A DNA stretch of 64,000 nt from a virus (lineage: Duplodnaviria > Caudoviricetes), in IMG/VR virus record IMGVR_UViG_3300025892_000008; one strand, 5' to 3'. Under the pieces are notes generated by a model. The model saw nothing but the letters and a program-made list of their open reading frames with translations, searched no databases and was not told where the DNA came from. Of the stretch, positions 728-62,118 are shown piece by piece; the first letter of the stretch is position 1; every line of letters begins with the position of its first letter. The position numbers and the translations under genes were made by a program.

Positions 728-842
728 TGGCACATTGCGTGCTGCGCATGCTGCTACAATTGTTAACAAGTTATGTAGATTTTGGTTGCATTTTGGACAA
801 AACTGTTGTATACTTAGTATAACAATTAAGGAGCGAAAACAC

Positions 843-995
843 ATGTACATAAACTTACAAGACTTATACGCAGCGTTTGCTGCTACTCCGCTACAGCAGC
901 GTTATGCATTCTGCATGCAGCACAGCACTTACAACTTAGCGTACAACATAAATTGGCACAACTGTGCTGCACATTGGAAACAGTACGCAGCATAA
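843..995 (+). CDS. early hypothetical protein
   Basis: Promoter and GGAGCG RBS (830-835) before ATG 843. Confidence 0.7.
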   Translation: MYINLQDLYAAFAATPLQQRYAFCMQHSTYNLAYNINWHNCAAHWKQYAA

Positions 996-1121
996 GCACA
1001 ACGTTGCGCAGCACTGTAGTACTGTGTGCTGCGCACAACTGTTAACATGTTATGTTTATTTTGCTTGCATTTTGGACAAACATGTGCTATATTAAGTATA
1101 CAATAACAACACGGAGCGAAC

Positions 1122-1514
1122 ATGAAGAACACGATAAACATTACTACACGTGAACTAAAACACTTGTGCAACTTTTTAACAAACACTATGAACTACAAAG
1201 TAAACTTAGTAAGTGATGAAGACTTTGCATACGATGAAGACGGCGGCTACAACTGTTACGATTGGGTAGCAGCAACGGACGAACTGTGCGCACAAACTGC
1301 TGCTGTACTAGATAGTTACTTTAATAAAAAGGACACAAGTGCTGCTACAGCACTAGCACATGCTATTGATTACAGATACGATGATGATTGTATTAATGAA
1401 GGTATAAGCGAACACTTTTACGATTACTGCAAGCAGCACAACTGTATGCAGTTGTACTACAAGCAGGCAGACGCACACGATTACGACGGAGAGGATGCTG
1501 CGCTGCGTATGTAA
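1122..1514 (+). CDS. early hypothetical acidic protein (proline-free)
   Basis: Own promoter and GGAGCG RBS; no TC/CC on the coding strand. Confidence 0.8.
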   Translation: MKNTINITTRELKHLCNFLTNTMNYKVNLVSDEDFAYDEDGGYNCYDWVAATDELCAQTAAVLDSYFNKKDTSAATALAHAIDYRYDDDCINEGISEHFYDYCKQHNCMQLYYKQADAHDYDGEDAALRM

Positions 1515-1578
1515 AAAACACTTGACAGTTTGGAAAAACTGTGCTACTATGCAAATATAATAACATTATGGAGCGTAC

Positions 1579-1863
1579 ATGTTAAACACAACACAAGTTA
1601 AAGATTTAGTTAAGCAACGTTTTGGCGGAAGTTTAAAACAAGTATACTTAAACAAATGCTATAGTAATAAACAAGAGATAGCAGACAAACGCAACATGGC
1701 TTTTGCTGTAGATGGAGACGTGTACACAAATGTGGACTTAACAGCACTAGCAAAAGAAATAGGATGCAAGCGTATAAAACTACACGCTGCATTTTTAAGA
1801 GGAATGCAAAGTGGAGCATGGTTACGTTTAATACATGTGCATTATGCATGTAAAAATAATTAA
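1579..1863 (+). CDS. early hypothetical protein (proline-free)
   Basis: TTGACA promoter and GGAGCG RBS. Confidence 0.75.
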   Translation: MLNTTQVKDLVKQRFGGSLKQVYLNKCYSNKQEIADKRNMAFAVDGDVYTNVDLTALAKEIGCKRIKLHAAFLRGMQSGAWLRLIHVHYACKNN

Positions 1864-1931
1864 AATAATGCTTGCATTTTGGATAAAATGAAAGTATAAT
1901 GTATATAACAATTAAGCATAAGGAGCGCAAC

Positions 1932-2069
1932 ATGCAAAAACTACTAAACAAAATTACATTTTATTTTTTAAACAGGGCGTTTACACAAATGGAGCAAAGC
2001 AACGATTTGCAAAATGATGATAAAGTTGCGGAGCACATTGAAGATTATTATACGTATTTTGTAAAATAA
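1932..2069 (+). CDS. early 45-aa hypothetical protein (not in ORF track)
   Basis: Promoter and AAGGAGCG RBS; MQKLLNKITFYFLNRAF...YFVK*. Confidence 0.7.
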   Translation: MQKLLNKITFYFLNRAFTQMEQSNDLQNDDKVAEHIEDYYTYFVK

Positions 2070-2136
2070 CGCTTTACATACTAGCACGCATGTGCTAGTA
2101 TGCATTATAAACTAAAACAACAGCGAGGAGCGCAAC

Positions 2137-2337
2137 ATGGGAATGTACAATTTAATTGAAGACAATGTAGAACAGTTTTACAAACTGGCAACAGCAGCAT
2201 GCGAACAGTGTGAGACACGTGAACAACTGTTAAACACTATGCGCAAGCACACTGGGCTGCTGTGCGGAAGCAGCGAAGCGGATGAGGATGCATGGCACGA
2301 AGGACTAAGCGAGCTGTGGCGTGAGCAGTACGTGTAA
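2137..2337 (+). CDS. early hypothetical protein (proline-free)
   Basis: GGAGCG RBS at 2127-2132. Confidence 0.75.
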   Translation: MGMYNLIEDNVEQFYKLATAACEQCETREQLLNTMRKHTGLLCGSSEADEDAWHEGLSELWREQYV

Positions 2338-2428
2338 ATTAATTTAAAAAAAGTGCATTTAGTACTTGACATTTTGGACAAACTGTAGTACTATGTATAT
2401 ATTAACTTAAACAAACGGAGCGTAACAC

Positions 2429-2893
2429 ATGTTAAACACACAAGCAAACAACACTAAAATTAAAACAGTAACTACACGTGATGGGGACATTGCTGTGCAA
2501 TTGGAAATTGATTTAGCACAGCACAACTTGCAAGTTAACGGACGTAAAGTGGAAAGCATTACTATGTATGCGGATGCGGAATGTAGTGGGGACTTAGCAG
2601 TTAACTGGGAAGAGGAAGACGACAGTAACTACGTACACAACAGCAGCATGCTAATGCGTGACACTAGTGACAGTAACAACAACACGGACACAATGGGACA
2701 GTTTTATTGGGACAGTTGTTTTGATGACACACTTGTGCAACTGTTACAAGAAAATGGATTTAGCAAAAGTGCTAGTGAGGACGTATGCGGAAGTGAATGG
2801 GGCATGCAGGATGTGGGACGTGCAAGTTACGACGCTTTTGCAATAGCAACGGAAATACTTGCAGCACACAACATTGCATATGAGGACGCATAA
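2429..2893 (+). CDS. early hypothetical acidic protein (proline-free)
   Basis: TTGACA promoter and GGAGCG RBS at 2417-2422. Confidence 0.8.
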   Translation: MLNTQANNTKIKTVTTRDGDIAVQLEIDLAQHNLQVNGRKVESITMYADAECSGDLAVNWEEEDDSNYVHNSSMLMRDTSDSNNNTDTMGQFYWDSCFDDTLVQLLQENGFSKSASEDVCGSEWGMQDVGRASYDAFAIATEILAAHNIAYEDA

Positions 2894-3106
2894 CAATATA
2901 CGCTGCGTGTGCAGCACATAGTACTACAACTGTGTGCTGCACAACATGCTGCTGCTGCGCAGCGTGTGCATGCAGACCCCGCTGCACGTATTTGTAAAAG
3001 TTGTTCTTTGTGTTCGCAGTAAGCACATTAGTTAAAAAGTACTTGACAAACACATTTAAATGTAGTATACTACAATCAACAATTAAGTATTAACGGAGCG
3101 TTCAAC

Positions 3107-3418
3107 ATGTATTACATATACGATAAGCAGTCAACACGTATTATCAATAAGCCGTCAAAGCCCTATCTACAATGCTGCTACAAGACGATGGCAGCAGCAC
3201 AGGCACAACTAACACGTATGCATAACAAGCACGTGAAGACTAAGGACAGTGCAACTAGCCCACTGTACACTGCTGCAATTGCAGAAGCAGCGTACTACGC
3301 TAGTAACATTGAGAAGCAGGTGACACGTAAGAACATGATGACGGGTAAACAGTATACAGAGAGTGTTAACACTCCAAGTTACATGTCGCCCAGCAGCGAG
3401 AGCTACTGGAGCATGTAG
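3107..3418 (+). CDS. early phage hypothetical protein
   Basis: Promoter and GGAGCG RBS; C-terminal NMMTGK...NTPSYMSPSSESYWSM recalled as a recurrent phage motif. Confidence 0.8.
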   Translation: MYYIYDKQSTRIINKPSKPYLQCCYKTMAAAQAQLTRMHNKHVKTKDSATSPLYTAAIAEAAYYASNIEKQVTRKNMMTGKQYTESVNTPSYMSPSSESYWSM

Positions 3419-3567
3419 ATAACCCAGACCCCGCTGCAGGGGTCAGGTAGGCAGGCTGCGCAGCATGTGCTGTGGCCGAGTTGAGGTAGAATAGGATTCA
3501 ATCAACAGCAGCGTAACATGAAAGGAGAACACTTTTAACGAAGGCAGACTAGTTAAAGGTGGGGAAG

Positions 3568-3600
3568 CAGCAGCATTGTTCAACAGTGCTGCTGTTTTTT
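3568..3600 (+). terminator. intrinsic terminator
   Basis: CAGCAGCATTGT/ACAGTGCTGCTG stem followed by a T-run. Confidence 0.75.
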
Positions 3601-3693
3601 TATCAACACCCCTTCAACAACTGCATGTGCTGCGTGCGGAGGTGGGGAAGCAGCACACAGTTGTAGTACTGCGTGCTGCTAGTGCTGCGTTAA

Positions 3694-4032
3694 TTAACTA
3701 ACGCAATTGTTATTTTCAATTGTTGCTAACAATGCATTATCTTTATGCACGTGTTGCAAGTAACTGTTAAACATATTTTCAACATATACGTTTTTAGTTT
3801 GTGCGCTTATGCGCAAATCATGCTGTAAACGCATTACGCTTTTTGCTAGTTGCTGCATTGTAGTTTGCTGTTGCTTATAATACGGCGGCTTTTTTGCTGC
3901 TTGCTTTGCTGCATTAATAGCACTGTTAACAGCATTGTACTGCTGCATTTGCTGCTGTGTTAATTTTACATTGCTGTTGCGGAATTGCAAGTAGTTAGCA
4001 TGTGTTACTGTAGTGTTTTTTGTTATTTGCAT
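3694..4032 (-). CDS. early hypothetical Gln/Ala/Asn-rich protein
   Basis: Minus-strand copy of the early promoter and GGAGCG RBS (4036-4041). Confidence 0.75.
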   Translation of the reverse strand: MQITKNTTVTHANYLQFRNSNVKLTQQQMQQYNAVNSAINAAKQAAKKPPYYKQQQTTMQQLAKSVMRLQHDLRISAQTKNVYVENMFNSYLQHVHKDNALLATIENNNCVS

Positions 4033-4280
4033 GTACGCTCCTTATGCTTAATTGTTATATGTATAGTAACATAAAAATTTCCAAAATGCAAGCAAATAAA
4101 ACATAACATGTTAACTAATTTTTCAATGCTGCGCTGCTAGTGCTGCACGCTGAGGCCGTCTCGGCCACATGCACGGGGAGGCGCCTTTTTGTTCTTTTGT
4201 TCTCTTTTTGGTAAATGAGGGGTTGACAAATAATTTTAGTGACTGTATACTGTATATAACAATTAGGAAAAGGAGCGAAA

Positions 4281-4568
4281 ATGATACAAGCACTAGAAGA
4301 GTACGTAGCCCAGCAGAACAGTTGGAACAAGATATTCGACAAGACCCACGTGGACATAGACGTGAATAACATGTCGAAACTACAAGCAGACGATCTAATA
4401 CGTAAACTAGATTCAGAAATGAGCCCAGAAAACTTACACTGTGATGGCGAGATAACCCACAGCCAGGCCCAAGACAAGTATGATTACTTCATGGCAGTGT
4501 GGCAGGACTTGCGAAGTGTATACTATAAAAAGCAATGGACTCTTCCACCAGTTTGGGAATTGGCCTAA
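4281..4568 (+). CDS. early hypothetical protein
   Basis: Promoter and GGAGCG RBS; LSPENLxCDGE-like motif. Confidence 0.8.
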   Translation: MIQALEEYVAQQNSWNKIFDKTHVDIDVNNMSKLQADDLIRKLDSEMSPENLHCDGEITHSQAQDKYDYFMAVWQDLRSVYYKKQWTLPPVWELA

Positions 4569-4646
4569 ATTAATTTGCAATTAGGGGTTGACATTGTTAA
4601 CCACTGACTGTATACTGTAAGAACAATGAAACATAAGGAGCGAAAT

Positions 4647-5675
4647 ATGTCAAAGAAACTAGTTAAGTTTAAAGAGAGCGGCTTTTATAATATACGTGGT
4701 AAGGCCACAGATGTAAAAGGTTTAGAGTTTCCGCTTATTGAAGATTGGAAGAAAGGCGCAGACATGGTCGGCTATGTAACAGTAGACGGATCATACCAAG
4801 CAGGCTTTCCTACAAGAAACATCCGAGTCAAATGTGATCAGAATGCTTTTTCGCTGATTGATCCATCCAAGGCGGCAGCCAAGGCAGAAGAAACAGATGA
4901 GCAGATCATCGAGCGTCTTCGTAAGAGATTTGACATCCTTGAAGACATGACACAGGCTACCAAAGAAGGTACAGTGCGAGCAATGATCGTTACAGGCCCT
5001 CCAGGTGTTGGTAAGTCCTTTGGCGTTGAGAAGACCTTGAACAAGGAAGACTTGTTTAATGTAATGGGTCAGCGAAAGCCAAAGTATGAAGTTGTCAAGG
5101 GTGCAATGTCCGCCATAGGCCTCTACTGTAAATTGTATGAGTTTGCCGACAAGGGTAACGTTGTCGTATTTGATGACTGTGACTCGGTACTACTAGATGA
5201 CCTGTCGCTGAACATTTTGAAAGCGGCATTGGACTCTAGCACAAAGAGAACTATCCATTGGAACACAGACAGCTCGAAGTTGAGAGCAGAAGGCGTACCA
5301 GGATCGTTCGAATTCAAAGCAGGTGCGATCTTTATTACGAACATCAAGTTCGAGAACGTACGAAGCAAGAAGTTGCAGGATCACTTAGCGGCACTAGAAA
5401 GCAGATGCCACTATATTGATCTGCAAATGGATACAGAGCGAGAGAAAGTGCTCCGTATCGAACAGATCGTCAAAGATGGAATGTTAGATACTTACGACTT
5501 CCAAAACGGCGAGGCTGAAGAGGTTGTTGGTTTTATCAATGATCAGAAGAAGAAGTTGAGAGAACTATCTCTCAGAACAGTGTTGAAGATTGCTGATCTT
5601 CGTAAGTCATTCCCAGGCAACTGGAAAGAGATGGCTGAAGTCACTGTAATGAAGACAGGACGATATGCCGCTTAG
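4647..5675 (+). CDS. AAA+ family P-loop ATPase
   Basis: Walker A GPPGVGKS, Walker B VVFDDCD, sensor ITN, SRC arginine finger; start after GGAGCG. Confidence 0.85.
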   Translation: MSKKLVKFKESGFYNIRGKATDVKGLEFPLIEDWKKGADMVGYVTVDGSYQAGFPTRNIRVKCDQNAFSLIDPSKAAAKAEETDEQIIERLRKRFDILEDMTQATKEGTVRAMIVTGPPGVGKSFGVEKTLNKEDLFNVMGQRKPKYEVVKGAMSAIGLYCKLYEFADKGNVVVFDDCDSVLLDDLSLNILKAALDSSTKRTIHWNTDSSKLRAEGVPGSFEFKAGAIFITNIKFENVRSKKLQDHLAALESRCHYIDLQMDTEREKVLRIEQIVKDGMLDTYDFQNGEAEEVVGFINDQKKKLRELSLRTVLKIADLRKSFPGNWKEMAEVTVMKTGRYAA

Positions 5676-5778
5676 GTATATTTTGGACATATTGGGGGTT
5701 GACTTTCGAGTCAACTCTCAGTATAATATAAAGACGCTGGGGACACAAATGGACTCCGGCAATATCAAAGGAGATAAT

Positions 5779-6066
5779 ATGAAACGTTTTAATCCAAAAA
5801 CAAAAACTTTTAAGGTGTTTTCTGCACTTTATAACGGCGATGCTCTAACTTCAGCGAAAGCGAAGAAAATGGGTGTTGGTAACCTTGGTGCGGAAGTATC
5901 AAGAATCAAGCAGAATGGTTATGCTGTATATACAAGTTCACGTAAGGCTGGCAACGGCGTAAGAGTGACTGAGTATGTAATGGGAAAACCATCACGTGAG
6001 ATCGTTGCATTAGGTTATGCGGCTAAATCAAAAGGTTTGACACTAGATACTATTACTAGCATCTAA
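5779..6066 (+). CDS. small basic protein, possibly winged-HTH DNA-binding
   Basis: AAGGAG RBS; LTSAKAKKMGVGNLGAEVSRIKQNGYAV pattern. Confidence 0.55.
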   Translation: MKRFNPKTKTFKVFSALYNGDALTSAKAKKMGVGNLGAEVSRIKQNGYAVYTSSRKAGNGVRVTEYVMGKPSREIVALGYAAKSKGLTLDTITSI

Positions 6067-6084
6067 GTAGTCACAAAAGATACA

Positions 6085-6126
6085 AAAACTGGCGTCATCC
6101 GATTCGCTCCCGGAGCCAGACTTTTT
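6085..6126 (+). ncRNA. 3'-UTR hairpin with anti-GGAGCG loop (copy 1)
   Basis: CTGGC..TCCG-ATTCGCTCC-CGGA-GCCAG; apical 18 nt identical to copy 2. Confidence 0.6.
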
Positions 6127-6129
6127 GGG

Positions 6130-6158
6130 TAGGCACTCTTTGTAGTGCCTATTTTTTT
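6130..6158 (+). terminator. intrinsic terminator
   Basis: TAGGCACT/AGTGCCTA stem followed by T7. Confidence 0.85.
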
Positions 6159-6251
6159 GACTAAAATAATCCAAAATAAATTGCATTTAGGGGTTGACTT
6201 CTTGAACAATAGAAGGTATAATGTATATAACAATTAGGAAAAGGAGCGAAT

Positions 6252-6413
6252 ATGTACCAAGATATAGATGTAAGAGACCAAGCAATTGAAATGGTAGAAG
6301 ACGGTCAAGTCGATGCTAAGGCAATGCTAATTATGGCTCTGAAGTATATGAGCACAGACGACGTGGCTGATATGCTAGATACGAACGAATTATCAGAAAG
6401 ATTTGGTAATTAG
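6252..6413 (+). CDS. early 53-aa hypothetical protein (not in ORF track)
   Basis: Promoter and AAGGAGCGAAT RBS; MYQDIDVRDQAIEMVEDG... Confidence 0.75.
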   Translation: MYQDIDVRDQAIEMVEDGQVDAKAMLIMALKYMSTDDVADMLDTNELSERFGN

Positions 6414-6485
6414 GGGTTGACATATGATGCAGATGATTGTATTATATAATAACAAACTTAGACAATTAACAGAAAGAGGTCAATT

Positions 6486-7565
6486 ATGAGCGACATGAGT
6501 ATAAGGCAGGTTGGGCCTAAATCAGCCAAGACATCGATTGCATTCGCAATTAAAATGAAACGCCCTACATTTTTATGGGGCCCTCCAGGCATTGGTAAAT
6601 CAGATCTAGTTCAGCAGATTGGTGCTGATACTGATCGTGAGGTTATTGATGTTAGGTTGGCACTATGGGAGCCGACAGACATTAAAGGTATTCCATACTT
6701 CGATTCCAATGCAGGAACGATGACATGGGCACCGCCGGCAGAACTTCCTACAGACCCTGATAGCAAGGCTATCTTGTTCTTAGACGAATTAAACTCTGCT
6801 CCACCAGCCGTGCAAGCCGCGGCCTATCAGTTAATCCTTAACCGTAAGGTAGGAACTTATGTATTGCCTAAAGGCGTTGACATTGTCGCCGCAGGTAATA
6901 GAGATGGTGATAAGGGTGTCACATACAGGATGCCGGCTCCTTTGGCGAACAGATTTGTTCACTTGGAGATGAAGGTAGACTTTGATGATTGGCAGGACTG
7001 GGCTACCTTGCACGGTATCAATCCTGAGGTAGTTGGTTATATTGGTTATGCCAAGCAGGACTTATATGACTATGATCCAAAGAGTCCTTCGAAGTCATTT
7101 GCAACTCCTCGTTCTTGGAGTTTCGTGAGTGACTTGGTTAGCGATACTGAGATTGATACAGAGTCGTTGACTAATTTGGTATCAGGCGCAATTGGCGATG
7201 GGTTGGCTGTGAAGTTTATGGCCCATAGAAAGATTGCTTCTAAACTTCCTAAGCCAGATGATATCCTTGACGGTAAGGTTAAGGATCTTGAAATTAAGGA
7301 AGTATCAGCGATGTATTCCTTAACCGTTGGACTCTGCTACGAGTTGAAAGACAGAGCAGACAAGAAGGTTAGCGATTGGGATAAGATGGCTGACAGGTTC
7401 TTTGAGTATATGATGAAGAACTTTCCTACAGAACTTGTCGTGATGGGAGCCAAGACAGCTCTTACAAATTACGACTTGCCCTTAGACGCTTCTAAAATGA
7501 AATCCTTTGATGAGTTTCATAAGAGGTTTGGCAAATATGTTATGAATGCTATGGAGACAGATTAA
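6486..7565 (+). CDS. MoxR-family AAA+ ATPase
   Basis: GPPGIGKS, LFLDELN, AAGN, LANRF motifs. Confidence 0.9.
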   Translation: MSDMSIRQVGPKSAKTSIAFAIKMKRPTFLWGPPGIGKSDLVQQIGADTDREVIDVRLALWEPTDIKGIPYFDSNAGTMTWAPPAELPTDPDSKAILFLDELNSAPPAVQAAAYQLILNRKVGTYVLPKGVDIVAAGNRDGDKGVTYRMPAPLANRFVHLEMKVDFDDWQDWATLHGINPEVVGYIGYAKQDLYDYDPKSPSKSFATPRSWSFVSDLVSDTEIDTESLTNLVSGAIGDGLAVKFMAHRKIASKLPKPDDILDGKVKDLEIKEVSAMYSLTVGLCYELKDRADKKVSDWDKMADRFFEYMMKNFPTELVVMGAKTALTNYDLPLDASKMKSFDEFHKRFGKYVMNAMETD

Positions 7566-7640
7566 TTGACCTACTCCATAGGTATCATAGGGTGCAAGGG
7601 GTCTAAGCCTTGCACCCACCCTAATTTAATTCAAAATAGT

Positions 7641-7698
7641 GGTTGACACTTTGGATAAAAGAAGGTATAATGTATATAACAATTAGGAAATGGAGCGA
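7641..7698 (+). repeat. representative early promoter-RBS repeat (near-identical at 10662-10719; related copies at about 20 sites from 785 to 13982)
   Basis: GGTTGACAnTTTGGATAAAAGAAGGTATAATGTATATAACAATTAGGAAAnGGAGCGA. Confidence 0.9.
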
Positions 7699-7703
7699 AA
7701 CAT

Positions 7704-8939
7704 ATGAATGCAATTGAAGAAAAACTTACAACCGCAAGGGTTGGATTACTTCTAAAAACTCCGTTCTTTGGCAATATGGCTACAAGAATGAAGATCATCA
7801 ATGCTGACGATTGGTGTCAGACTGCCGCAACTGACGGTAGAAACTTCTATTACAATACAGAATTCGTTAAGAAGTTATCCACAAAGAAATTAGAGTTCCT
7901 CTTTGCACACGAAATAGGTCATTGTGTATTTGATCATTTTGGTAGAGCAGGTAGCAGGAACAGACAACTCTGCAATATCTCACAGGACTATGCAATCAAC
8001 CAGATCCTCGCAGATGAGAAGATCGGTGAAGTGATTGACGAAGTTCCTATTTGCTTGGACTCACAATACAGAGGCTTGGCTTGGGAAGAGATCTACGACA
8101 AGTTATATGAGAAGGCAGACATCCAAGAGATTACATTAGATCAACTAATGGAGGGACTGGGTGAAACACTTGATGAGCATATTAACGGTGACGGTGCTCA
8201 AGGTCAGAAAGGACAAGACAAGGAGCAAGATAGCGATACAAGAGGTAAGGCTCCTGTTCTAACTAAAGAAGAAAAGCAGAAGATCAAAGATGAGATTAAA
8301 GAGGCTATGATCCAGAGTGCGGCGGCGGCTGGTGCAGGTAAGACTCCAGGTGCTATCCAGAGACTGATCAAAGACTTGACAGAAGCAAAGATGAACTGGA
8401 GAGAGATTCTTAGAATGAATATCCAGAGCATTATTAAGAATGATTATTCATTTACTATTCCAAGTCGTAAGGGTTGGCACACAGGAGCAATCCTCCCAGG
8501 TGTTAAGAACGATGAGACAATTGATATTGCTATTGCGGTAGACATGAGTGGTAGTATTGGGATGGACGATGCCAAAGTGTTCTTTTCAGAGATCAAAGGT
8601 ATTATGGACCAGTATGAAGACTTCAGCATTAAGGTATGGTGCTTTGATACAGAGGTCTACAATTATGCAGAGTTCAGTCAGGACAATGTAGAAGAATTGT
8701 TAGACTACGAGCCCAAAGGTGGCGGTGGTACAGAGTTCGTTGTGAACTGGGACTTTATGAAAGAGAATGCAATTGAGCCTAAGAAATTTGTGATGTTCAC
8801 TGATGGTTATCCTTGGGGTAGTTGGGGTGATGAGAACTATTGCGATACCCTGTTCATAGTGAAGGGTAATGAACGAGCAGAAGCGCCGTTCGGACAGACG
8901 GTAATCTATGAGAAAGACGCGGCCCTACATGGAGAATAA
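7704..8939 (+). CDS. metallopeptidase-like plus VWA domain protein (DUF2201 type), MoxR partner
   Basis: HEIGH zinc motif, DMSGS MIDAS motif, GGGT, FTDG. Confidence 0.88.
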   Translation: MNAIEEKLTTARVGLLLKTPFFGNMATRMKIINADDWCQTAATDGRNFYYNTEFVKKLSTKKLEFLFAHEIGHCVFDHFGRAGSRNRQLCNISQDYAINQILADEKIGEVIDEVPICLDSQYRGLAWEEIYDKLYEKADIQEITLDQLMEGLGETLDEHINGDGAQGQKGQDKEQDSDTRGKAPVLTKEEKQKIKDEIKEAMIQSAAAAGAGKTPGAIQRLIKDLTEAKMNWREILRMNIQSIIKNDYSFTIPSRKGWHTGAILPGVKNDETIDIAIAVDMSGSIGMDDAKVFFSEIKGIMDQYEDFSIKVWCFDTEVYNYAEFSQDNVEELLDYEPKGGGGTEFVVNWDFMKENAIEPKKFVMFTDGYPWGSWGDENYCDTLFIVKGNERAEAPFGQTVIYEKDAALHGE

Positions 8940-9177
8940 TGAACTGAGAGATATGATAGGATCCCCATTCAAGGTGGGGTCACCCTGTGTATGGACCACC
9001 CACAACTTCCAGTGGATAGGGACCGTGGTTAAGGTATGCAAGAGCAGGGTAAGGGTTAAGCCTCTACCGGGCTCAACGAGATACACCCGTTATGAAGGAT
9101 TGCCATTCCCGGAGAAGGTAATACAACTAGATTCGATGCCAAAATCAGCACTATTCATGGCAATAAAAAGTGGTTGA
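8929..9177 (+). CDS. hypothetical protein (SH3-like beta fold possible)
   Basis: ORF overlapping the stop of the VWA gene. Confidence 0.6.
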   Translation: MENNELRDMIGSPFKVGSPCVWTTHNFQWIGTVVKVCKSRVRVKPLPGSTRYTRYEGLPFPEKVIQLDSMPKSALFMAIKSG

Positions 9178-9230
9178 CATTTTGGATAAAAGAAGGTATA
9201 ATAATAACATAATAACAATAAGGAGCGAGT

Positions 9231-9923
9231 ATGACAATAGAATATAGCATAGCACACCGAGATCCTGTGACCCTTATAGGATACAATGGCGAAGGTGCAA
9301 TCAAATACAATGTGACAGGCTACAAGAGAGAGTTCTTGGAAGTCAAGGTAAGACGAAATAGATCTTACAATGATGACTCTTGGTCTTGGGAAATTGAATT
9401 AGATGTTCCTAGGTATGGTAGAGATAAAGATCAGGAGCCTTGCAATATCAAGGTAGCCAAGTATATGACATCAGCAATGGCTGAGGCTATCAAAGAGATG
9501 GAGAGCATCCAGGATCAGATCCCTACTATGGATAAAGAGTATGAGAGAGGCCAGAAGGAAAGGGAAGAGAAGCGAGTAAGAGAAGCGGCCGAGAGACAGG
9601 CTAAGATTGACGCTGACAAACCCGTAGGGCATAAACTAGCAAAGACTATCTGTGATGAGATGGTTAAGCAGGCTAGAGAGACTGAGCAGGATAGCAAGGA
9701 GATCGTGTTCCAGACTAGAGGCGATCATAGAGAAGAGAAGATGCGATGCGTCTACACTATGAGTGGGTTGACTCTGTTTAACATGGGTTGGAATAGAGTA
9801 AGTCGTAAGGATGCGGTAAGGAAACTTGCAGACGCTTGGTTGGCTAGTGTTGATACAGGCGATGTGAAGGATAGCATACCTGACGCTAGATTGGCAGGAT
9901 TTATGATGGGCGGTAAGAACTAG
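9231..9923 (+). CDS. early hypothetical protein
   Basis: Promoter and GGAGCG RBS at 9222-9227. Confidence 0.8.
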   Translation: MTIEYSIAHRDPVTLIGYNGEGAIKYNVTGYKREFLEVKVRRNRSYNDDSWSWEIELDVPRYGRDKDQEPCNIKVAKYMTSAMAEAIKEMESIQDQIPTMDKEYERGQKEREEKRVREAAERQAKIDADKPVGHKLAKTICDEMVKQARETEQDSKEIVFQTRGDHREEKMRCVYTMSGLTLFNMGWNRVSRKDAVRKLADAWLASVDTGDVKDSIPDARLAGFMMGGKN

Positions 9924-10030
9924 GGGCAAATACCCCGCTGCAAAGAGCCCCTAATTTGGATATTAGGGGTTGACAGATTGGATTTATGATAGTATTATAT
10001 ACATATAATGAAAATTAAGGAGCGAACAAT

Positions 10031-10309
10031 ATGAAAGCATTTGAACAGGCAATTGAAGCAATTAATAAGATCGACACCACAGAAGAGATAAGAGACCTCT
10101 TTGATGCGATCAGGCTTCGTCAAACATTCCTAGGTAACAAGACCATTAGGGCTCTTGCAACTGGTGACAATGTATCCTTTAATGGTAAGAATGGTTACAC
10201 CAAGGGAACAGTCAAAAAAATCAACAGAAAATATGTATTGGTAGACACTGCTCGAGGACAGTGGAGAGTGCCTGCTACAATGCTAACCAAGGAGGACTCA
10301 TATGCTTAA
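10031..10309 (+). CDS. early hypothetical protein (SH3-like C-terminus)
   Basis: Promoter and GGAGCG RBS; GTVKKINRKYVLV..WRVPATML. Confidence 0.8.
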   Translation: MKAFEQAIEAINKIDTTEEIRDLFDAIRLRQTFLGNKTIRALATGDNVSFNGKNGYTKGTVKKINRKYVLVDTARGQWRVPATMLTKEDSYA

Positions 10310-10445
10310 GGCTATCGTATTTGGTATCCTGGGTGCAGGTGCGATGTATCTGTATTTAGGACACGGCGACATCCCTGCATTCATTGACATGCTCAAAGGT
10401 ATTGTCAATCAAGGTGCAGGCATAGTAGAAGAAGCGACCCAGTAG
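10302..10445 (+). CDS. 47-aa membrane peptide
   Basis: GGAGG RBS; hydrophobic N-terminus. Confidence 0.6.
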   Translation: MLKAIVFGILGAGAMYLYLGHGDIPAFIDMLKGIVNQGAGIVEEATQ

Positions 10446-10667
10446 ATGATCTACAAGGGCTTCCGATACGAGCAGGATATCCAAGAGGAAGAGGATAACC
10501 GCAAGATATTCCACGAAGTAATTGACCCGCAAGGCAATAATGTAAGGTGGGGATTGCTTCCGGCAAGTTGGCACGATATAAGTCCGTATCGTTCCGCAAC
10601 TGTAGAGGAATTTGAGGCGGCTGTTAATGAGGTTATTTTTTATAATTTTGTTGCAGAAAATGGTTGA
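10446..10667 (+). CDS. hypothetical protein
   Basis: ORF abutting the upstream stop codon. Confidence 0.65.
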   Translation: MIYKGFRYEQDIQEEEDNRKIFHEVIDPQGNNVRWGLLPASWHDISPYRSATVEEFEAAVNEVIFYNFVAENG

Positions 10668-10721
10668 CAGTTTGGATAAAAGAAGGTATAATGTATATAA
10701 CAATTAGGAAAAGGAGCGATT

Positions 10722-11054
10722 ATGTATAAACTAGATAGCAATGATGCAATGATAAACGGCACTAGCCTGCAAGGACACATTGAGGCAAGTTATGATGACT
10801 TGGTTAAGGCGTTTGGTGCTCCGGCTTTTGACAGCGTGGTAGACGGCGACAGCGACAAGGTGCACACTGAGTGGGCACTTGAATTCCAAAATGAAGAAGG
10901 CGATTACATTACCGCTACAATTTATGACTGGAAAGAATATAACGCCTACACTAGCAGGACGGGCAAGTATAGGTGGCACATAGGTGGCAATAGTTATGAA
11001 GCGGTTGAGGCCGTGTATGACTATGCTAATCTAAAGGAGGTTGCTGATGCCTAA
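10722..11054 (+). CDS. early phage hypothetical protein
   Basis: Promoter and GGAGCG RBS; GTSLQG..DKV.TEW..ATIYDWK motif. Confidence 0.8.
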   Translation: MYKLDSNDAMINGTSLQGHIEASYDDLVKAFGAPAFDSVVDGDSDKVHTEWALEFQNEEGDYITATIYDWKEYNAYTSRTGKYRWHIGGNSYEAVEAVYDYANLKEVADA

Positions 11055-11643
11055 TTGGTGCGATAATACAATTTCAATTACGGGGCCAGCAGAGAAGTTG
11101 AGCCCCATGTATACCAAGTTGGTAGCAGAAGAGGAAGAAGGTTTGTTAAGCATCCTCTATCCTCAACCAGCAGACATCTTTAAGGGTGATCTGGGAGACA
11201 AGGAACGAAAGCAATGCGCCAAGGACGGTGTTCCTAACTGGTACGATTGGAACAGTTCTAACTGGGGTACCAAGTGGGATGTATCAGAAGGTAACTGGCA
11301 ATATGAAGATGCTGGTGACGGTCAAGCAATCCTAACAGGCAACTTTGAAAGTGCTTGGGCTCCGCCAACAGGTGTATATGAACACTGCCAGACAGCACAC
11401 GACGATCTATACATTGAAGCAATGTATTATGAACCCGGCTGTGCATTTGCAGGCATGTGGACAAGTGATGGTGGTGATGATCATTACAGCCTAGAAGGCG
11501 ACAAGGCCGCATTGGAGAACGAACTTCCAGAAGAACTGAATGATGCTTTTGGAATTACGGAAAACATTGAAGAGGAACCAGAAGAGTTGACTGAATGGTT
11601 GAAAGAAGGTTCCGAAGCAAAGAAGGAGTTGGTCGGTGGATAA
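11047..11643 (+). CDS. DUF1281/YubB-like ferredoxin-like domain protein
   Basis: MPNWCDN start, NWGTKWD, F.SAWAPP, YEPGCAFAG. Confidence 0.75.
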   Translation: MPNWCDNTISITGPAEKLSPMYTKLVAEEEEGLLSILYPQPADIFKGDLGDKERKQCAKDGVPNWYDWNSSNWGTKWDVSEGNWQYEDAGDGQAILTGNFESAWAPPTGVYEHCQTAHDDLYIEAMYYEPGCAFAGMWTSDGGDDHYSLEGDKAALENELPEELNDAFGITENIEEEPEELTEWLKEGSEAKKELVGG

Positions 11644-11842
11644 TACTGTTCCAGCAAAGAGAAGATTCACTTACACACTTTCAGTAGAGTGTGCGAGCGA
11701 AGGGAATGCTGATTTGGATGCAGTTGAAAACATCCTAGATCTACATTTTCAGGATTTGGTAATGGACGATACATTCGTGAACGAATTAGACGAAAGTCAA
11801 TCCGTTACCATTCAAGTAGTACCCAATTTTGGAAAGAAATAA
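11636..11842 (+). CDS. hypothetical protein
   Basis: ORF overlapping the upstream stop codon. Confidence 0.65.
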   Translation: MDNTVPAKRRFTYTLSVECASEGNADLDAVENILDLHFQDLVMDDTFVNELDESQSVTIQVVPNFGKK

Positions 11843-11937
11843 TGGTTGACATCCAATCCAAAATATGGTATAATAACATTGAGCCTGTAGGAACAGGTTC
11901 ATTAATTAACTAAGAAAGGCTAATAGAGGTAAACATT

Positions 11938-12255
11938 ATGGCAACAGAAAAAAAGTTCTCAGTAGTAGGTGTATCAACCCTGAACGGGAAAACAAAGATT
12001 AGATTCGCAAACGATAGTATGAGGATCAAGATCTTACTTAAGAATGGTCATGAAGACGTAGATATGATCAATCTTGATAGGGAGATGTATAAGTGGGAAA
12101 TCGCTGAACATCTAAAGGCAGTTAATTTTGCGAAAGACAATAGCGCCACAAAGAATGCTATTGACTATATCGCTAAAAAGAATCCAGCGCCGGAAGGCAT
12201 GGATGCTCCTGCAGAAACTAACAAAGAAGAAGCAGTTGAGCCAGTGGTAGCATAA
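11938..12255 (+). CDS. phage hypothetical protein
   Basis: Own sigma70-type promoter, AGAGG RBS (not GGAGCG). Confidence 0.8.
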   Translation: MATEKKFSVVGVSTLNGKTKIRFANDSMRIKILLKNGHEDVDMINLDREMYKWEIAEHLKAVNFAKDNSATKNAIDYIAKKNPAPEGMDAPAETNKEEAVEPVVA

Positions 12256-12284
12256 TCCGATTCGCTCCCGGAAGCGACCACTAG
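12242..12284 (+). ncRNA. 3'-UTR hairpin with anti-GGAGCG loop (copy 2)
   Basis: AGTGGTAGC..TCCG-ATTCGCTCC-CGGA..GCGACCACT. Confidence 0.6.
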
Positions 12285-12289
12285 TACCT

Positions 12290-12339
12290 GAGGAAGGCTA
12301 GCATGCCCTCAAATATTATGCTAGTCTTCCTCTTTTTTT
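12290..12339 (+). terminator. intrinsic terminator
   Basis: GAGGAAGGCTAGCAT/ATGCTAGTCTTCCTC stem followed by T7. Confidence 0.85.
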
Positions 12340-12402
12340 GGTTGACATTTGGATAAAAGGGTGCTATATTAAGAGTATAATAAGAAACAGAAAGAGAGCG
12401 TT

Positions 12403-12567
12403 ATGTTAGAATTAATTGGTTTTTGTGCAGTTGCTTACTTGGTGTTCAAGTTTGCGCCTGCGATATTAGAAGTTGGATTTAAGTTTGCGGTTATATGCTT
12501 AGGTCTAGTTGCATTTTTCTTCATACTGAGTTTTGTATGGGGTACAATTTTAATCGCGATTAACTAG
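12403..12567 (+). CDS. 54-aa two-helix membrane peptide
   Basis: Promoter and GAGAGCG RBS variant; hydrophobic throughout. Confidence 0.65.
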   Translation: MLELIGFCAVAYLVFKFAPAILEVGFKFAVICLGLVAFFFILSFVWGTILIAIN

Positions 12568-12576
12568 GAGGACTAT

Positions 12577-12756
12577 ATGGGAGAGCTATTAGAAATCATT
12601 GAAGACCTTAAGAGCCTGGATGCAAACGACGACCCAATCGAAAGAAAGATTGAATTGGGCGAGTTGATTACGAAATACCAGGATCGTTTTGACACAGCCG
12701 AGCGTGATATATCGCGTCAAATGGAGCTCGATTTAGTTCAAACAATCTGCAAATAA
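12577..12756 (+). CDS. 59-aa acidic hypothetical protein
   Basis: GGAGG RBS. Confidence 0.65.
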   Translation: MGELLEIIEDLKSLDANDDPIERKIELGELITKYQDRFDTAERDISRQMELDLVQTICK

Positions 12757-12817
12757 TGGTTGACAAATTGGATAAAATCCTGTATACTGTAAGTATAAAC
12801 AATAAAGGAGCGAGCAT

Positions 12818-13231
12818 ATGAAATTAGTAATCCACACACAGTTCAAAGAAAACTACGGCGCCCACACATGGGACGGCGAAGGCGAGTGTCCACAGTATTG
12901 GAAGTTCAAAGGCGGAGAGACCTTCGTGCTCCCAGGAGTAGACACGGAACTGTTGGTGCCCGCTCTGCGAGACCTAATCGAGTACAAGGACGACGGGTCC
13001 GAAGAATACATTCTCAACGCAGAGGTTGTAGAGGATGACGCTGTGATATGCGAAGAGTGGGAAACTCCGTGGACCATATATGCAGAGGACATGGGCTTCT
13101 ATGCCAGCCGTTATGTGAAGGCAGAAGACTATTGGCAACCTGGCTACAAGGGCAAGGCCCAGAGCTACAAGATGCTGCCTAAGGGTGAGCGTGAAGCGTG
13201 GAGCGAGGAATACATCAAGGAGGCAGCGTAA
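12818..13231 (+). CDS. early phage hypothetical protein
   Basis: Promoter and GGAGCG RBS; TQFKENYGAH..YWKFKGG motif. Confidence 0.8.
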   Translation: MKLVIHTQFKENYGAHTWDGEGECPQYWKFKGGETFVLPGVDTELLVPALRDLIEYKDDGSEEYILNAEVVEDDAVICEEWETPWTIYAEDMGFYASRYVKAEDYWQPGYKGKAQSYKMLPKGEREAWSEEYIKEAA

Positions 13232-13473
13232 TGAAGTTCCTGCTTCTGAGTGTTATGCTAGCCGGGCAACCCCTATACGACACAGAGGCCACCTGCACCA
13301 AGGCAGCAACGGTAATCAACGACAGTTATCCAGAGCAGAAGAGCATATGCATACCTGCGCCCACTGTGTATTTCGAGCAAAACCAGGAAGATAAAGCGTT
13401 CAATAACTTCTATGATTTGATCATAAAACTGAGAAATTTACCTCCTAAAGAGGTTGACATTTTGGAAGAATGA
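13231..13473 (+). CDS. secreted or lipoprotein-like hypothetical protein
   Basis: Signal-like MKFLLLSVMLAG start; TAATG overlap with upstream stop. Confidence 0.6.
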   Translation: MKFLLLSVMLAGQPLYDTEATCTKAATVINDSYPEQKSICIPAPTVYFEQNQEDKAFNNFYDLIIKLRNLPPKEVDILEE

Positions 13474-13513
13474 TAGTATTATATACTTACTAACTTAAAC
13501 AAAAGGAGCGAAT

Positions 13514-13903
13514 ATGTTTGTAGAAAAAACCGTAACAGCGACACCAACATTTGACACAGTAAAGGTCCAAATGATCCACACAGAAGCAACCAGTGCTGCT
13601 AAGGCTGCTGTTGCTAAGATGCTGGACGAATGGACAGAAAGCACAGGCGGCAACCAGTATGGTGAGCCTATGTATTGTGGATTTGCTTGGGTAGATGTTA
13701 AAGAGCGAAGCAATAGTAAACTGGGCAAGGCTCTACAGAGCATAGGTTTCCGTAAGAGCTACCAAAGTGGTGTTCTTCAGTTATGGGATCCTGCACAGCA
13801 TAGAGGGCAGAGCATGGATTGCAAAGAAGTGGGTGCCAGTGCTTATGCTGCTGTATGGCGTGAATATGGCGTAAAAATGCACATGGGTTCGCGTGCAGAC
13901 TAA
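13514..13903 (+). CDS. early hypothetical protein
   Basis: Promoter and GGAGCGAAT RBS; CGFAWV motif. Confidence 0.8.
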   Translation: MFVEKTVTATPTFDTVKVQMIHTEATSAAKAAVAKMLDEWTESTGGNQYGEPMYCGFAWVDVKERSNSKLGKALQSIGFRKSYQSGVLQLWDPAQHRGQSMDCKEVGASAYAAVWREYGVKMHMGSRAD

Positions 13904-13985
13904 GGCTACATTTTGGATATTAGGGGTTGACAAACAGCCCCTAATGTCATATATTAGTAGTATGAAACAAACAAAAGGAGCGATT

Positions 13986-40277: not shown

Positions 40278-41053
40278 GAATATTCTTCCGTTAGTTCGTA
40301 TGCTGTACCGTTTTCTATTTCTTCAATAGTAAACTGCCCGTAGGCTAGACTTGCACATTGTTGTTCAATTATTTGTTGGGTTGGCTTAAATGGGTTTGAT
40401 AAATCTTCAATGTTATGCGATGCTAAAGGACTTGCGGCACACGGAACACTTACAAATGCAGGAACACCATGTACTACAGATTCCATTGCAGCCATACTAT
40501 TCATAGTTACTGTTGCATATGTTCCGCTGTCTAAAGCATCGTATATTGTGTATTCTTTTACTCTTGCGGATCTTGATCCTTTTACTCTTACTTCAATTGG
40601 TAAGTTGCTATACTTTTCAATATTTGAAGTAGTTTCTTTTACCCACGTATCATAATCTATTCCATAATATCTACATGCTTTGGGGTTAGGTAAAACTAAT
40701 AAAATTTTCTTGTTATTATTTTTCCATCCAGACCAACTAAGACTAGGATCTTGTTCTAGTAGTTTCTGCCATCTGTCAGTTGGAACATTTCTTATTTTAG
40801 AATGCTGGTTTTCGTTTTTAACTACTCTGTGCCAAAGTTTTTTACCGCTTGGATTTCCTTTACTAACAAAGTTACCAAGATAGCCTGTATCAATATAGTA
40901 AAAATCTCTGCCTGCTTTGATGCATGCATTTACATGATCTTTTTTTATTACGCCTCTAACAACAAGAGGTTTAGAAGTATCTTTAGGGTCTGTAGTTAAC
41001 TTACCGCCAGAACCTATAACTAGTGATTCTTCTAAACTAAGTTTGTTTGCCAT
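40274..41053 (-). CDS. KpsS/KpsC-like GT-B protein, paralogue 4
   Basis: DTGY, TMNSMAAMESVVHGVP, LAYGQFT.EEI.NG.A. Confidence 0.65.
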   Translation of the reverse strand: MANKLSLEESLVIGSGGKLTTDPKDTSKPLVVRGVIKKDHVNACIKAGRDFYYIDTGYLGNFVSKGNPSGKKLWHRVVKNENQHSKIRNVPTDRWQKLLEQDPSLSWSGWKNNNKKILLVLPNPKACRYYGIDYDTWVKETTSNIEKYSNLPIEVRVKGSRSARVKEYTIYDALDSGTYATVTMNSMAAMESVVHGVPAFVSVPCAASPLASHNIEDLSNPFKPTQQIIEQQCASLAYGQFTIEEIENGTAYELTEEYS

Positions 41054-61600: not shown

Positions 61601-62118
61601 GCATCAGTTAAAACAATAGGAGTCTTAGCAGCAAATTTTTGTCCGCCTGTAGTGCTTAATGCTGCACTATTCCATTGTTGGATACCCCATGCTGTAGATC
61701 CAGTGTTAATCCACCAAGTTCCATCAGGTGGGTTCGCTCCCGGAGCCTCTGCTGTTCCTGTTAGTTGCCCTAAATCAACATTTGCTCTCGTTACGAACGC
61801 TGCGTTAGATACACCTAGTAAACTGTATGCTGCCAATAGGCCATATTCATTAAGTTCGCTACCATGAATAGGTGTATTGCTCGCTGTCTTTTCGAAGTTA
61901 GGAACTCCAAAAAGATCTACTAATTCTTTTTGACTTGTCACTTTAAATGCATTCCCTGCATTCGCCGCCGAAGTTGCTGAAGCAACGCCAGTGCCTGCGG
62001 CATTAGTTTTGTCTTGGGCCGTTGCTACTATAATAAGTGGAGTTGTTCCGGGTTCAGCCGGAGTATAAAAACTCTCATCTATTACACTAACTTCTACGCC
62101 GGGTGATGTAAGTGCCAT
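58699..62118 (-). CDS. tail sheath protein (gp18-like, enlarged)
   Basis: LTSPGVEVSVIDES N-terminus; WFAPAGTRRG, VNPI, RINVARL, PVKAIEFI C-terminus. Confidence 0.95.
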   Translation of the reverse strand: MALTSPGVEVSVIDESFYTPAEPGTTPLIIVATAQDKTNAAGTGVASATSAANAGNAFKVTSQKELVDLFGVPNFEKTASNTPIHGSELNEYGLLAAYSLLGVSNAAFVTRANVDLGQLTGTAEAPGANPPDGTWWINTGSTAWGIQQWNSAALSTTGGQKFAAKTPIVLTDADAAKISNNAPLGSVGSIGDYAVVFETVGTAATGSFSFSKDPARMYYKSPGNTQAGVAAGNWVLVGSQEWRASIPTVITAQLTGSKITAAAGNFTINSTTVAIGGSDSVDDIVATINGLSIAGTTAKNVSDRIYIYTDGTSNTNANTVVIGANNADLTELEISPVTYKGPELYQAPHTLVPQWKGTPGTDAGARPTGSVWIKTTEPNNGSRWRAAKWNSATATWVSYDAPLYASGHSAIYSLDRSGAGINLAADSLFVQTNAFEHSMYDSSPATAVFRTWRRANTGVTTVTSAVVATQLIADDYTFEIQESIQGQEALNAAINVTFSSSGSSSDANTMAAAINAAGFTNVEAAVTANNEITISHKTGGEIRLRDVGRDALGALFTPYNIDTAAGTANFYNLSDASLTAGSSQLAPGADDSTAENRYLASNWQPLSSSDFYASSDNPEAEPADGQLWYNPEFSDVDMMIHDGTTWVGYRSATSPYTEAASDRVGYVPTVSASNPYVAGTTVTGDLWISTADIENYPTIYKYDGNQSGPVSERWVLVDKTDQTSEDGVLFGDARYGSTGATGNTAATIKDLQKVDFLDPDAPDPALYPQGMLLWNLRRSGGNVKRYANNYIDITADNQRFNNDEAMGAYATDRWVTESGNNEDGSGSFGRKAQRKVVVQRMKSAVDTSSQVRDEERRNFNIIAAPGYPELMSNLVNLNIDRGLTAFVIGDTPLRLAADATTLTNWGTNASLVTDNGDDGLVTYDEYLGAFYPNGFTTDLGGSNAVVPASHMMMRTIALSDQVSFPWFAPAGTRRGGISNATAVGFIDAATGEFQTVALNEGQRDTLYDLKVNPITFFNGVGLVNYGQKTRARNASALDRINVARLVVYMRSQLNKLARPYIFEPNDKITRDEVKQAVESLLLELVGLRAIYDFAVVCDETNNTPARVDRNELYVDIAIEPVKAIEFIYIPLRVKNTGEI

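Follow-up and report, generated by a model that had tools for sequence, protein, structure and literature searches.

A conserved 3'-UTR hairpin of uncultured marine giant phages with a loop complementary to phage ribosome sites: a candidate antisense module

The window, i.e. the whole 64-kb stretch of phage DNA analysed here, has a GC content of 37.5% and carries three tRNA genes. A hairpin motif occurs in it twice, downstream of two small early genes. The following features were recognised at the second of these sites:

11846..11874 (+): promoter of the copy-2 unit, sigma-70-type TTGACA-17-TATAAT, 12/12 consensus
11938..12255 (+): copy-2 carrier gene, encoding a 105-aa protein of unassigned function; ribosome site AGAGG, not GGAGCG
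12243..12282 (+): hairpin copy 2 as folded by RNAfold, with the exact 18-mer; homologous hairpins have other outer helices
12260..12268 (+): 9-nt loop AUUCGCUCC of copy 2, unpaired in RNAfold and invariant
12290..12339 (+): intrinsic terminator after copy 2 (16-bp stem, 11-nt loop, U7)
12342..12370 (+): next early promoter, TTGACA-17-TATATT

The copy-2 unit is monocistronic; it starts at the promoter and ends in hairpin copy 2. About 82 N-terminal residues of the carrier protein are conserved, while its tail is variable. This protein belongs to no Pfam or PHROG family, and its AlphaFold model (pLDDT 80) gave no informative fold match among PDB entries and AlphaFold clusters. The 5' arm of the hairpin lies within the last codons of the carrier gene, and the 18-mer opens on the final base of the TAA stop codon (12253-12255). 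In the RNAfold structure, positions 12243-12251 pair with 12274-12282 (AGUGGU/ACCACU plus GC/GC, with one A.G mismatch); an internal loop follows, and then the inner stem UCCG/CGGA (12256-12259 / 12269-12272). The loop AUUCGCUCC is the complement of GGAGCGAAU and includes a YUNR-type UUCG.

Hairpin copy 2 does not qualify as an intrinsic terminator, since it is followed by AGUACCUGA and not by a U-run. The real terminator of the unit is the next hairpin, which the consensus terminator scan overlooked because its loop measures 11 nt. Folding energy of the copy-2 region including this terminator is -39.7 kcal/mol (z = -5.7). The motif hairpin alone is only modestly more stable than its shuffled versions (z = -2.2); it is thus the comparative data, and not the folding energy, that argue for selection. 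Beyond the promoter at 12342-12370, the gene at 12403-12567 has the ribosome site GAGAGCG.

The first copy of the motif is located about 6 kb upstream and has the following surroundings:

5779..6066 (+): copy-1 carrier gene, encoding a 95-aa winged-helix protein (Pfam HTH_39, 25 bits versus a cut-off of 21.3)
6083..6127 (+): hairpin copy 1, outer helix CAAAAACUGGC / GCCAG..UUUUUG, inner stem as in copy 2, loop at 6102-6110
6128..6160 (+): intrinsic terminator after copy 1, picked up by the consensus terminator scan

The copy-1 carrier gene has the ribosome site AAGGAGA and its own promoter at 5699-5727; a weak UUUUUG is present after the stem of its hairpin. Both carrier units are predicted to be short monocistronic transcripts. 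Neither of the two carrier proteins showed an RNA-binding domain, and the winged-helix protein is encoded by no cultured phage. A small reverse-strand open reading frame at copy 1, whose ATG comes right after the motif, was rejected as a gene: it has 11 codons only and is unconserved among homologues.

The first-pass annotation had described an 18-nt sequence that recurs exactly, sits at the stop codon and 3' UTR of a gene without a GGAGCG ribosome site, and directly precedes a strong terminator. Each of these statements holds. The 18-mer ATCCGATTCGCTCCCGGA is present at 6097-6114 and 12255-12272 (+); its second copy overlaps the TAA of the open reading frame 11938-12255, which uses AGAGG, and the terminator with a 16-bp stem and U7 lies at 12290-12339. 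The annotation had also suggested folding both copies and searching for further ones. RNAfold placed the shared apex on different helices, AGUGGU/ACCACU plus GC/GC versus CAAAAACUGGC / GCCAG..UUUUUG, and left the copy-2 loop unpaired, so that the outer helix indeed differs between the copies and yet pairs. The search of the 64-kb window returned the two exact sites and no further site with up to three mismatches. None is expected by chance, and none of 100 shuffled sequences (0/100) contained a match.

The tail sheath protein of the phage (1139 aa) shares only 38-46% identity with those of Atu_ph07, PA5oct and Rak2-like giant phages, and the cultured-phage collection contained no near DNA match to either locus. 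Marine metagenomes contain near-identical DNA, as do four RNA-library runs of marine origin. In these four metatranscriptome runs, which belong to one study, 93-97% of the sampled words of window positions 5700-12700 were present as contigs. These contigs are tens of kilobases long, have flat depth, cross the terminators and break at repeated promoter cassettes. Their flat coverage probably reflects DNA.

The wider motif family was retrieved by exact 17-mer scans of viral and metagenome contigs. The 15-nt core CCG-AUUCGCUCC-CGG is retained in at least 72 non-identical instances, each with an enclosing helix and a downstream T-run. The design shared by the viral contigs and by dozens of metagenome contigs places the motif within an outer helix of variable sequence, followed by a terminator and, in most cases, a TTGACA promoter. 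One to three copies of the motif are present, nearly always in a 3' UTR ahead of a terminator, from which they are separated by about 8-15 nt. The carrier genes encode proteins of 93-111 aa belonging to only two or three families. In an alignment of 45 diverse instances, there is no variation in the 14 columns CCGATTCGCT.CCGG, against a mean column identity of 62%; MAFFT aligns the core only, because spacer lengths differ among instances. Changes in near-matches to the motif are confined to outer stem positions. Matches to the 17-mer in bacterial genomes were dismissed as chance occurrences in high-GC coding DNA (e.g. mycobacterial lexA).

Outer helices as different as AAAGAC/GTCTTT, GCCATGG/CCATGGC, GGTTGCCG/CGGCAAC, GTCGTC/GACGAC and CACTGAGT/ATTCAGTG enclose the same core. 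Covariation of these helices was judged by own-versus-cross partner tests and not by a formal covariance model: the outer 5' arms pair far better with their own 3' arm than with arms of other instances (p = 2e-5 to 7e-17). The core is invariant across phages of 37-51% GC whose carrier proteins are 59-86% identical, and the flanks diverge freely. This points to long-term purifying selection rather than recent spread of the motif. The earlier proposal of selection on RNA structure and loop, as opposed to a recent duplication, is thus borne out by the invariant core and the own-partner outer helices in related DNA.

Loci that were picked by homology to the two carrier proteins, independent of the motif, provided an unbiased sample. 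In the copy-2 family, 8/8 distinct loci carry the hairpin, which is placed directly at the stop codon. One of these loci has a C-to-U change in the loop (CUUC), which keeps a G.U pair with GGAGCG. Two others read UCGG-UUCGCUC-CCGA, i.e. have the 7-nt loop UUCGCUC, and the constant unpaired core is therefore UUCGCUC. In the copy-1 family, 32 of the 57 distinct loci carry the hairpin, always with CCGATTCGCTCCCGG; the remaining 25 have a terminator only. Apart from the C-to-U change, differences within the two families are limited to the stem. The sampled instances included no loop variant suitable for revealing covariation between the loop and the ribosome sites.

Only the three tRNAs were recovered from the window by Rfam 15 at the gathering threshold. 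An E-value scan of positions 5600-12600 gave only a chance match to mir-684 (24.8 of 100 bits), which lies off the hairpins. The literature on the loop, on GGAGCG as a phage Shine-Dalgarno (SD) sequence and on phage anti-SD sRNAs yielded nothing relevant. Judged by its sequence conservation, the motif is a real, strongly conserved and undescribed phage RNA motif.

Several arrangements within the family deserve mention. Three tandem motif hairpins occupy one 3' UTR in contigs L036 (-), at about 600-720, and L070 (+), at 1305-1400, an arrangement known from multi-seed sRNAs. The third hairpin of L036 doubles as the terminator, and the triple array of L070 comes after a winged-helix gene of the copy-1 family. 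In the close relative L051 (-), positions 1-120, a csgF-like gene starts, on the reverse strand, next to the terminator and promoter found behind copy 1 of the window; a single motif copy may be read on both strands there.

The potential partners of the loop within the window are ribosome sites of early genes:

830..13982 (+): 17 GGAGCG sites located 3-9 nt before ATG, candidate weak targets
6243..6251 (+): GGAGCGAAU, ribosome site of the gene 6252-6413, 9/9 complement of the loop

The GGAGCG sites are at positions 830, 1113, 1570, 1922, 2127, 2417, 3095, 4272, 4637, 6243, 7692, 9222, 10019, 10713, 12807, 13505 and 13977. About 3.7 occurrences of GGAGCG are expected on the plus strand from base composition, as compared to 17 tagged sites. 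Nearly all of the 17 tagged genes are the first gene after a TTGACA/TATAAT promoter. Complementarity between the loop and these sites extends over 6-9 nt, and the complete 9-mer GGAGCGAAU occurs again at 13505-13513 (9/9). Cofolding of the hairpin with early leaders gave net energies of 0 to -9 kcal/mol if the stem opens; loop kissing is outside the cofold model.

Outside the window, GGAGCG-N3-9-ATG occurs on the hairpin strand at 6.9 per 10 kb versus 0.64 in contigs with chance hits. Among loci selected by protein homology, the tag density is 7.4 per 10 kb where the hairpin is present and 0.47 where it is absent. The carrier genes themselves do not use the tag (0/33 non-redundant carrier genes versus 174/472 other ORFs). 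Hairpin presence maps to essentially one clade of the carrier-protein tree (2 changes), and the co-occurrence of hairpin and tag is therefore co-inheritance and not independent evidence.

Several early genes are preceded by a repeated cassette. A near-identical stretch from promoter to ribosome site, TATAAT gtatataacaattaggaaaaGGAGCG, is found at window positions 4240-4280, 6216-6254, 7660-7703 and 10685-10721. In public assemblies, the repeats cause breaks or false joins (joints 12352 to 6217 and 12352 to 10687).

Stronger complementary leaders are known from relatives and lie outside the 64-kb window. About a dozen of the 17-mer matches represent the motif on the other strand, where it serves as ribosome site, UCCGGGAGCGAAUCGGAUG, for a csgF-like gene with csgG behind it. 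In window-like phages, an exact 17-nt complement of the motif makes up the csgF-like ribosome site and overlaps the AUG. Contigs with the csgF-like UCCGGGAGCGAAUCGGAUG also encode phage auxiliary genes, namely heme oxygenase and bilin reductase. More distant csgF-like genes of other phages have different ribosome sites. Two relatives, G006 and G001, contain both the hairpins and these leaders:

G006 (L428) 40291-40784 (+), 49533-49830 (-); G001 (L453, L454): CsgF-/CsgG-like region and 93-aa gene, TAAATA leaders with the 'early' tag

Genome G006 (353 kb, 98% complete) has two hairpins at 316 and 323 kb, on the minus strand of its early region, and the GGAGCG tag is concentrated in this hairpin-bearing region. 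Two late-type leaders are located about 270 kb from the hairpins; they consist of TAAATA, ~12 nt, CCGGGAGCGAA(U/C)CG and AUG, and precede csgF-like/csgG and the 93-aa gene. The 11-mer CCGGGAGCGAA occurs four times in G006, twice as reverse complement in the hairpins and twice in the late ribosome sites. The same four-site layout was found in G001 (138 kb). Complementarity to the csgF-like and 93-aa leaders comprises 14-15 nt in G006 and 11-12 nt in G001, and cofolding of hairpin and late leader gave net -12 to -17 kcal/mol. The 93-aa protein (phrog_18771) is conserved and has an N-terminal membrane segment. In the fragments G009-G011, the hairpin pair is about 6.9 kb apart; the two hairpins are orthologously placed, about 6-7 kb from each other, in the window, G001, G006 and G009-G011.

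One further complementary site lies in the window at 61729-61740 (-). It is CCGGGAGCGAAC, a 12-nt complement of the hairpin apex, within the tail-sheath ORF, some 380 nt past the start of that frame. Chance alone would yield about 0.01 sites of this kind; the site is unconserved in G006 and is possibly a chance match.

The reading that we prefer, and to which we give roughly even chances, is that the hairpin is a putative 3'-UTR-borne antisense module that blocks complementary ribosome sites. The module would be carried by the 3' UTRs of two short, strongly promoted early transcripts (5779-6066; 11938-12255), in the order gene, motif hairpin, terminator, and would display the apex CCG-AUUCGCUCC-CGG on a variable basal helix. 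The apex would pair loop-first with initiation regions bearing GGAGCGAA and compete with the 30S subunit. A strong class of targets would be the two late leaders (TAAATA, ~12 nt, CCGGGAGCGAA, 3-4 nt, AUG; 11-17 bp), which in relatives belong to the csgF-like/csgG operon and the gene for the 93-aa membrane protein. In the genome of the present phage, they would be expected about 70-90 kb away from the hairpins, by analogy with G001 and G006. About 17 early mRNAs tagged GGAGCG(AA) would form a weak class (6-9 bp). As a result, the envelope genes would be silenced while early transcripts dominate, and early translation would perhaps be damped. RNA accumulation, pairing and the direction of the effect are the parts of this reading that we infer.

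Complementarity to initiation regions in the same genome, a hallmark of antisense sRNAs, was found for the motif. The two strand forms of the motif sit where each would be transcribed, which supports an action at the RNA level based on complementarity. The hairpin form has covarying basal helices and the leader form has none, which likewise supports a role as RNA. Against the antisense reading, pairing with the early sites is short, and weak if the stem opens (0 to -9 kcal/mol). Recombination between promoter-SD cassettes of the PeSL type could keep GGAGCG uniform without any pairing partner (PMC4122927), and protein-binding sites, too, classically show an invariant apex above a basal stem that varies. 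A wider version, which we offer only tentatively and regard as doubtful, is that of a private translation code in an uncultured marine giant-phage clade. The tag GGAGCGAA would mark an early regulon and, in addition, two late genes of the envelope, for a csgF/csgG-type outer-membrane channel and for a small membrane protein; the anti-tag hairpins in early 3' UTRs would serve as a trans-acting timer that keeps the envelope genes silent until late and helps to shut off early translation.

The hairpin could instead be an RNA site for a phage or host protein that stabilises 3' ends, modulates the terminator (nut/put-like) or autoregulates the carrier gene, the likeness to ribosome sites being incidental. 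Hairpins that bind proteins typically combine an invariant apex, here of 15 nt, with a basal helix of variable sequence. A terminator always follows the motif at a distance of about 8-15 nt, and the linkage of the motif to the carrier genes is conserved. The early 92-aa protein encoded at 10031-10309 (+) has weak similarity, below the threshold, to a phage ProQ C-terminal-like domain (E = 0.006, 17.6 bits versus a cut-off of 27) and is a possible RNA chaperone candidate. We consider a protein site rather unlikely: it leaves unexplained why the complement of the motif, including stem bases, occurs at two late ribosome sites and why the loop matches the early tag, and neither carrier protein has a detected RNA-binding domain.

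A cis-acting lock is improbable. On terminator read-through, the loop would pair with the GGAGCG site of the next gene, and only transcripts from the gene's own promoter would be translated; some T4 genes are silenced on read-through RNA by hairpins. The 9/9 complementary ribosome site at 6243 is 130 nt past copy 1, and several copy-2 homologues precede GGAGCG or GAGAGCGAA sites. However, some downstream genes lack the tag (L253, L010), and with ~37% of neighbouring ORFs tagged such adjacency is unremarkable. Tandem arrays and distant late leaders would also be left unexplained.

It is very unlikely that the motif is a by-product without sequence-specific function, i.e. an inverted ribosome-site cassette that was caught in a stabilising 3' hairpin and spread by early-cassette recombination. 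In its favour, terminator-promoter-SD cassettes resembling PeSLs (PMC4122927) recur in the early intergenic regions and interrupt assemblies, and the motif in exactly inverted form makes up the csgF-like ribosome site. A by-product would hardly keep its 15-nt core invariant at 37-51% GC, with carriers 59-86% identical and flanks free to change, or be retained as two copies at orthologous positions in the window, G001, G006 and G009-G011.

Least probable of all is a DNA operator, in which the duplex CCGGGAGCGAATCGG is bound by the adjacent winged-helix protein and two late genes are repressed at about +10 of their TAAATA promoters: the winged-helix gene directly upstream of copy 1, the same duplex just past late promoters in G001 and G006, and the inverted repeat TCCG...CGGA of the arms agree with it, but it gives no reason for instance-specific complementary flanks or placement in 3'-UTR hairpins, and variation is found in the arms and not in the asymmetric centre, the reverse of what a dimer operator would show. 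Mimicry of tRNA or T-loops was rejected: the three phage tRNAs have no complement of the loop and, by reasoning, the rules for T-loops and anticodon loops are not obeyed.

By analogy, the motif is a putative variant of the anti-SD loop sRNA and 3'-UTR sRNA themes. Enterobacterial 3'-UTR sRNAs such as CpxQ, SroC and DapZ usually have single-stranded, Hfq-dependent seeds. The phage motif resembles them in its location at an mRNA 3' end and the shared terminator, but its candidate seed is within a hairpin loop. The C-rich (UCCC) loop sRNAs of Firmicutes (RNAIII hairpins, RsaE/RoxS, LhrC) are host-encoded, stand-alone RNAs, each pairing with G-rich ribosome sites in more than one mRNA. They share apical loops with a CUCC/UCCC core, often several per RNA, whereas the phage module resides in a 3' UTR, has another loop sequence and would address a phage-specific target tag. 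The c4 antisense RNA of phages P1 and P7 (Rfam C4) is a structured RNA whose exposed segments block phage ribosome-site regions; it is encoded ahead of its target within one operon and released by RNase P cleavage. Like c4, the motif is phage-encoded, structured, part of a longer transcript and complementary to a ribosome-site region, with putative action in our case, although the two are unrelated in sequence and fold.

The closest design is that of the alphaproteobacterial cuckoo/CcsR sRNAs (RSs0680, alpha-r14), i.e. modular hairpins with variable stems and an identical anti-SD-like loop, which are likewise co-transcribed after a small protein gene and followed by a terminator (PMC4615179). 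Their layout of 2-4 adjacent hairpins with variable stems and the same loop, a small ORF and a terminator is found here with 1-3 hairpins. The loops differ, being AUUCGCUCC in all phage instances and CCUCCUCCC in cuckoo/CcsR. Furthermore, the motif is a phage element whose loop fits the private GGAGCG and two late leaders and not a general SD; it has no sequence or Rfam relation to cuckoo/CcsR RNAs, and Hfq binding and stress induction are features of the latter. The resemblance is one of design, not homology.

The surroundings of the motif correspond to the PeSL cassettes of T4-like phages, which comprise a stem-loop terminator, a near-consensus sigma-70 early promoter, an SD and a start codon (PMC2839356, PMC4122927): cassettes of this kind are repeated in the ORFan-rich early region. 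The motif hairpin itself falls outside the PeSL definition. In PeSLs, the stem-loop is itself the terminator and lacks a conserved loop complementary to the SD. The motif hairpin, by contrast, is additional to the terminator and precedes it, and each genome has it at two or three places only. Joint post-transcriptional control of an early-gene class marked by an SD variant is also allowed for in T4, where the protein nuclease RegB acts on GGAG early mRNAs (consensus GGAGRAYARAA; PMC3014915). The candidate reader in the present phage clade is RNA, not protein, and the 98%-complete relative G006 has no match to RegB (PF10715) at E <= 1.

Little is known of regulatory RNAs in lytic phages, and the large uncultured marine myophages are, to our knowledge, without a described example. 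What is added here are the late-leader partners, the near-complete relative G006 and the clade-level caveat on hairpin and tag. The conserved module comes with ready predicted partners, about 17 tagged early genes and the 11-17-nt matches in late leaders, and a post-transcriptional timing circuit is thus open to reporter testing even without the host. A new RNA family would also aid the annotation of phage metagenomes. The anti-tag would offer a reason why CG is fixed after GGAG in this clade; pairing with 16S rRNA offers none.

A minor observation concerns the coding strand of the tagged early region. Positions 910-2977 (+) of the window form a run of 2,067 nt without TC or CC, in which C makes up ~17-18% of the bases. 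This run encloses four to five GGAGCG-tagged early genes, and no CUCC-type internal anti-SD is therefore possible in their mRNAs.
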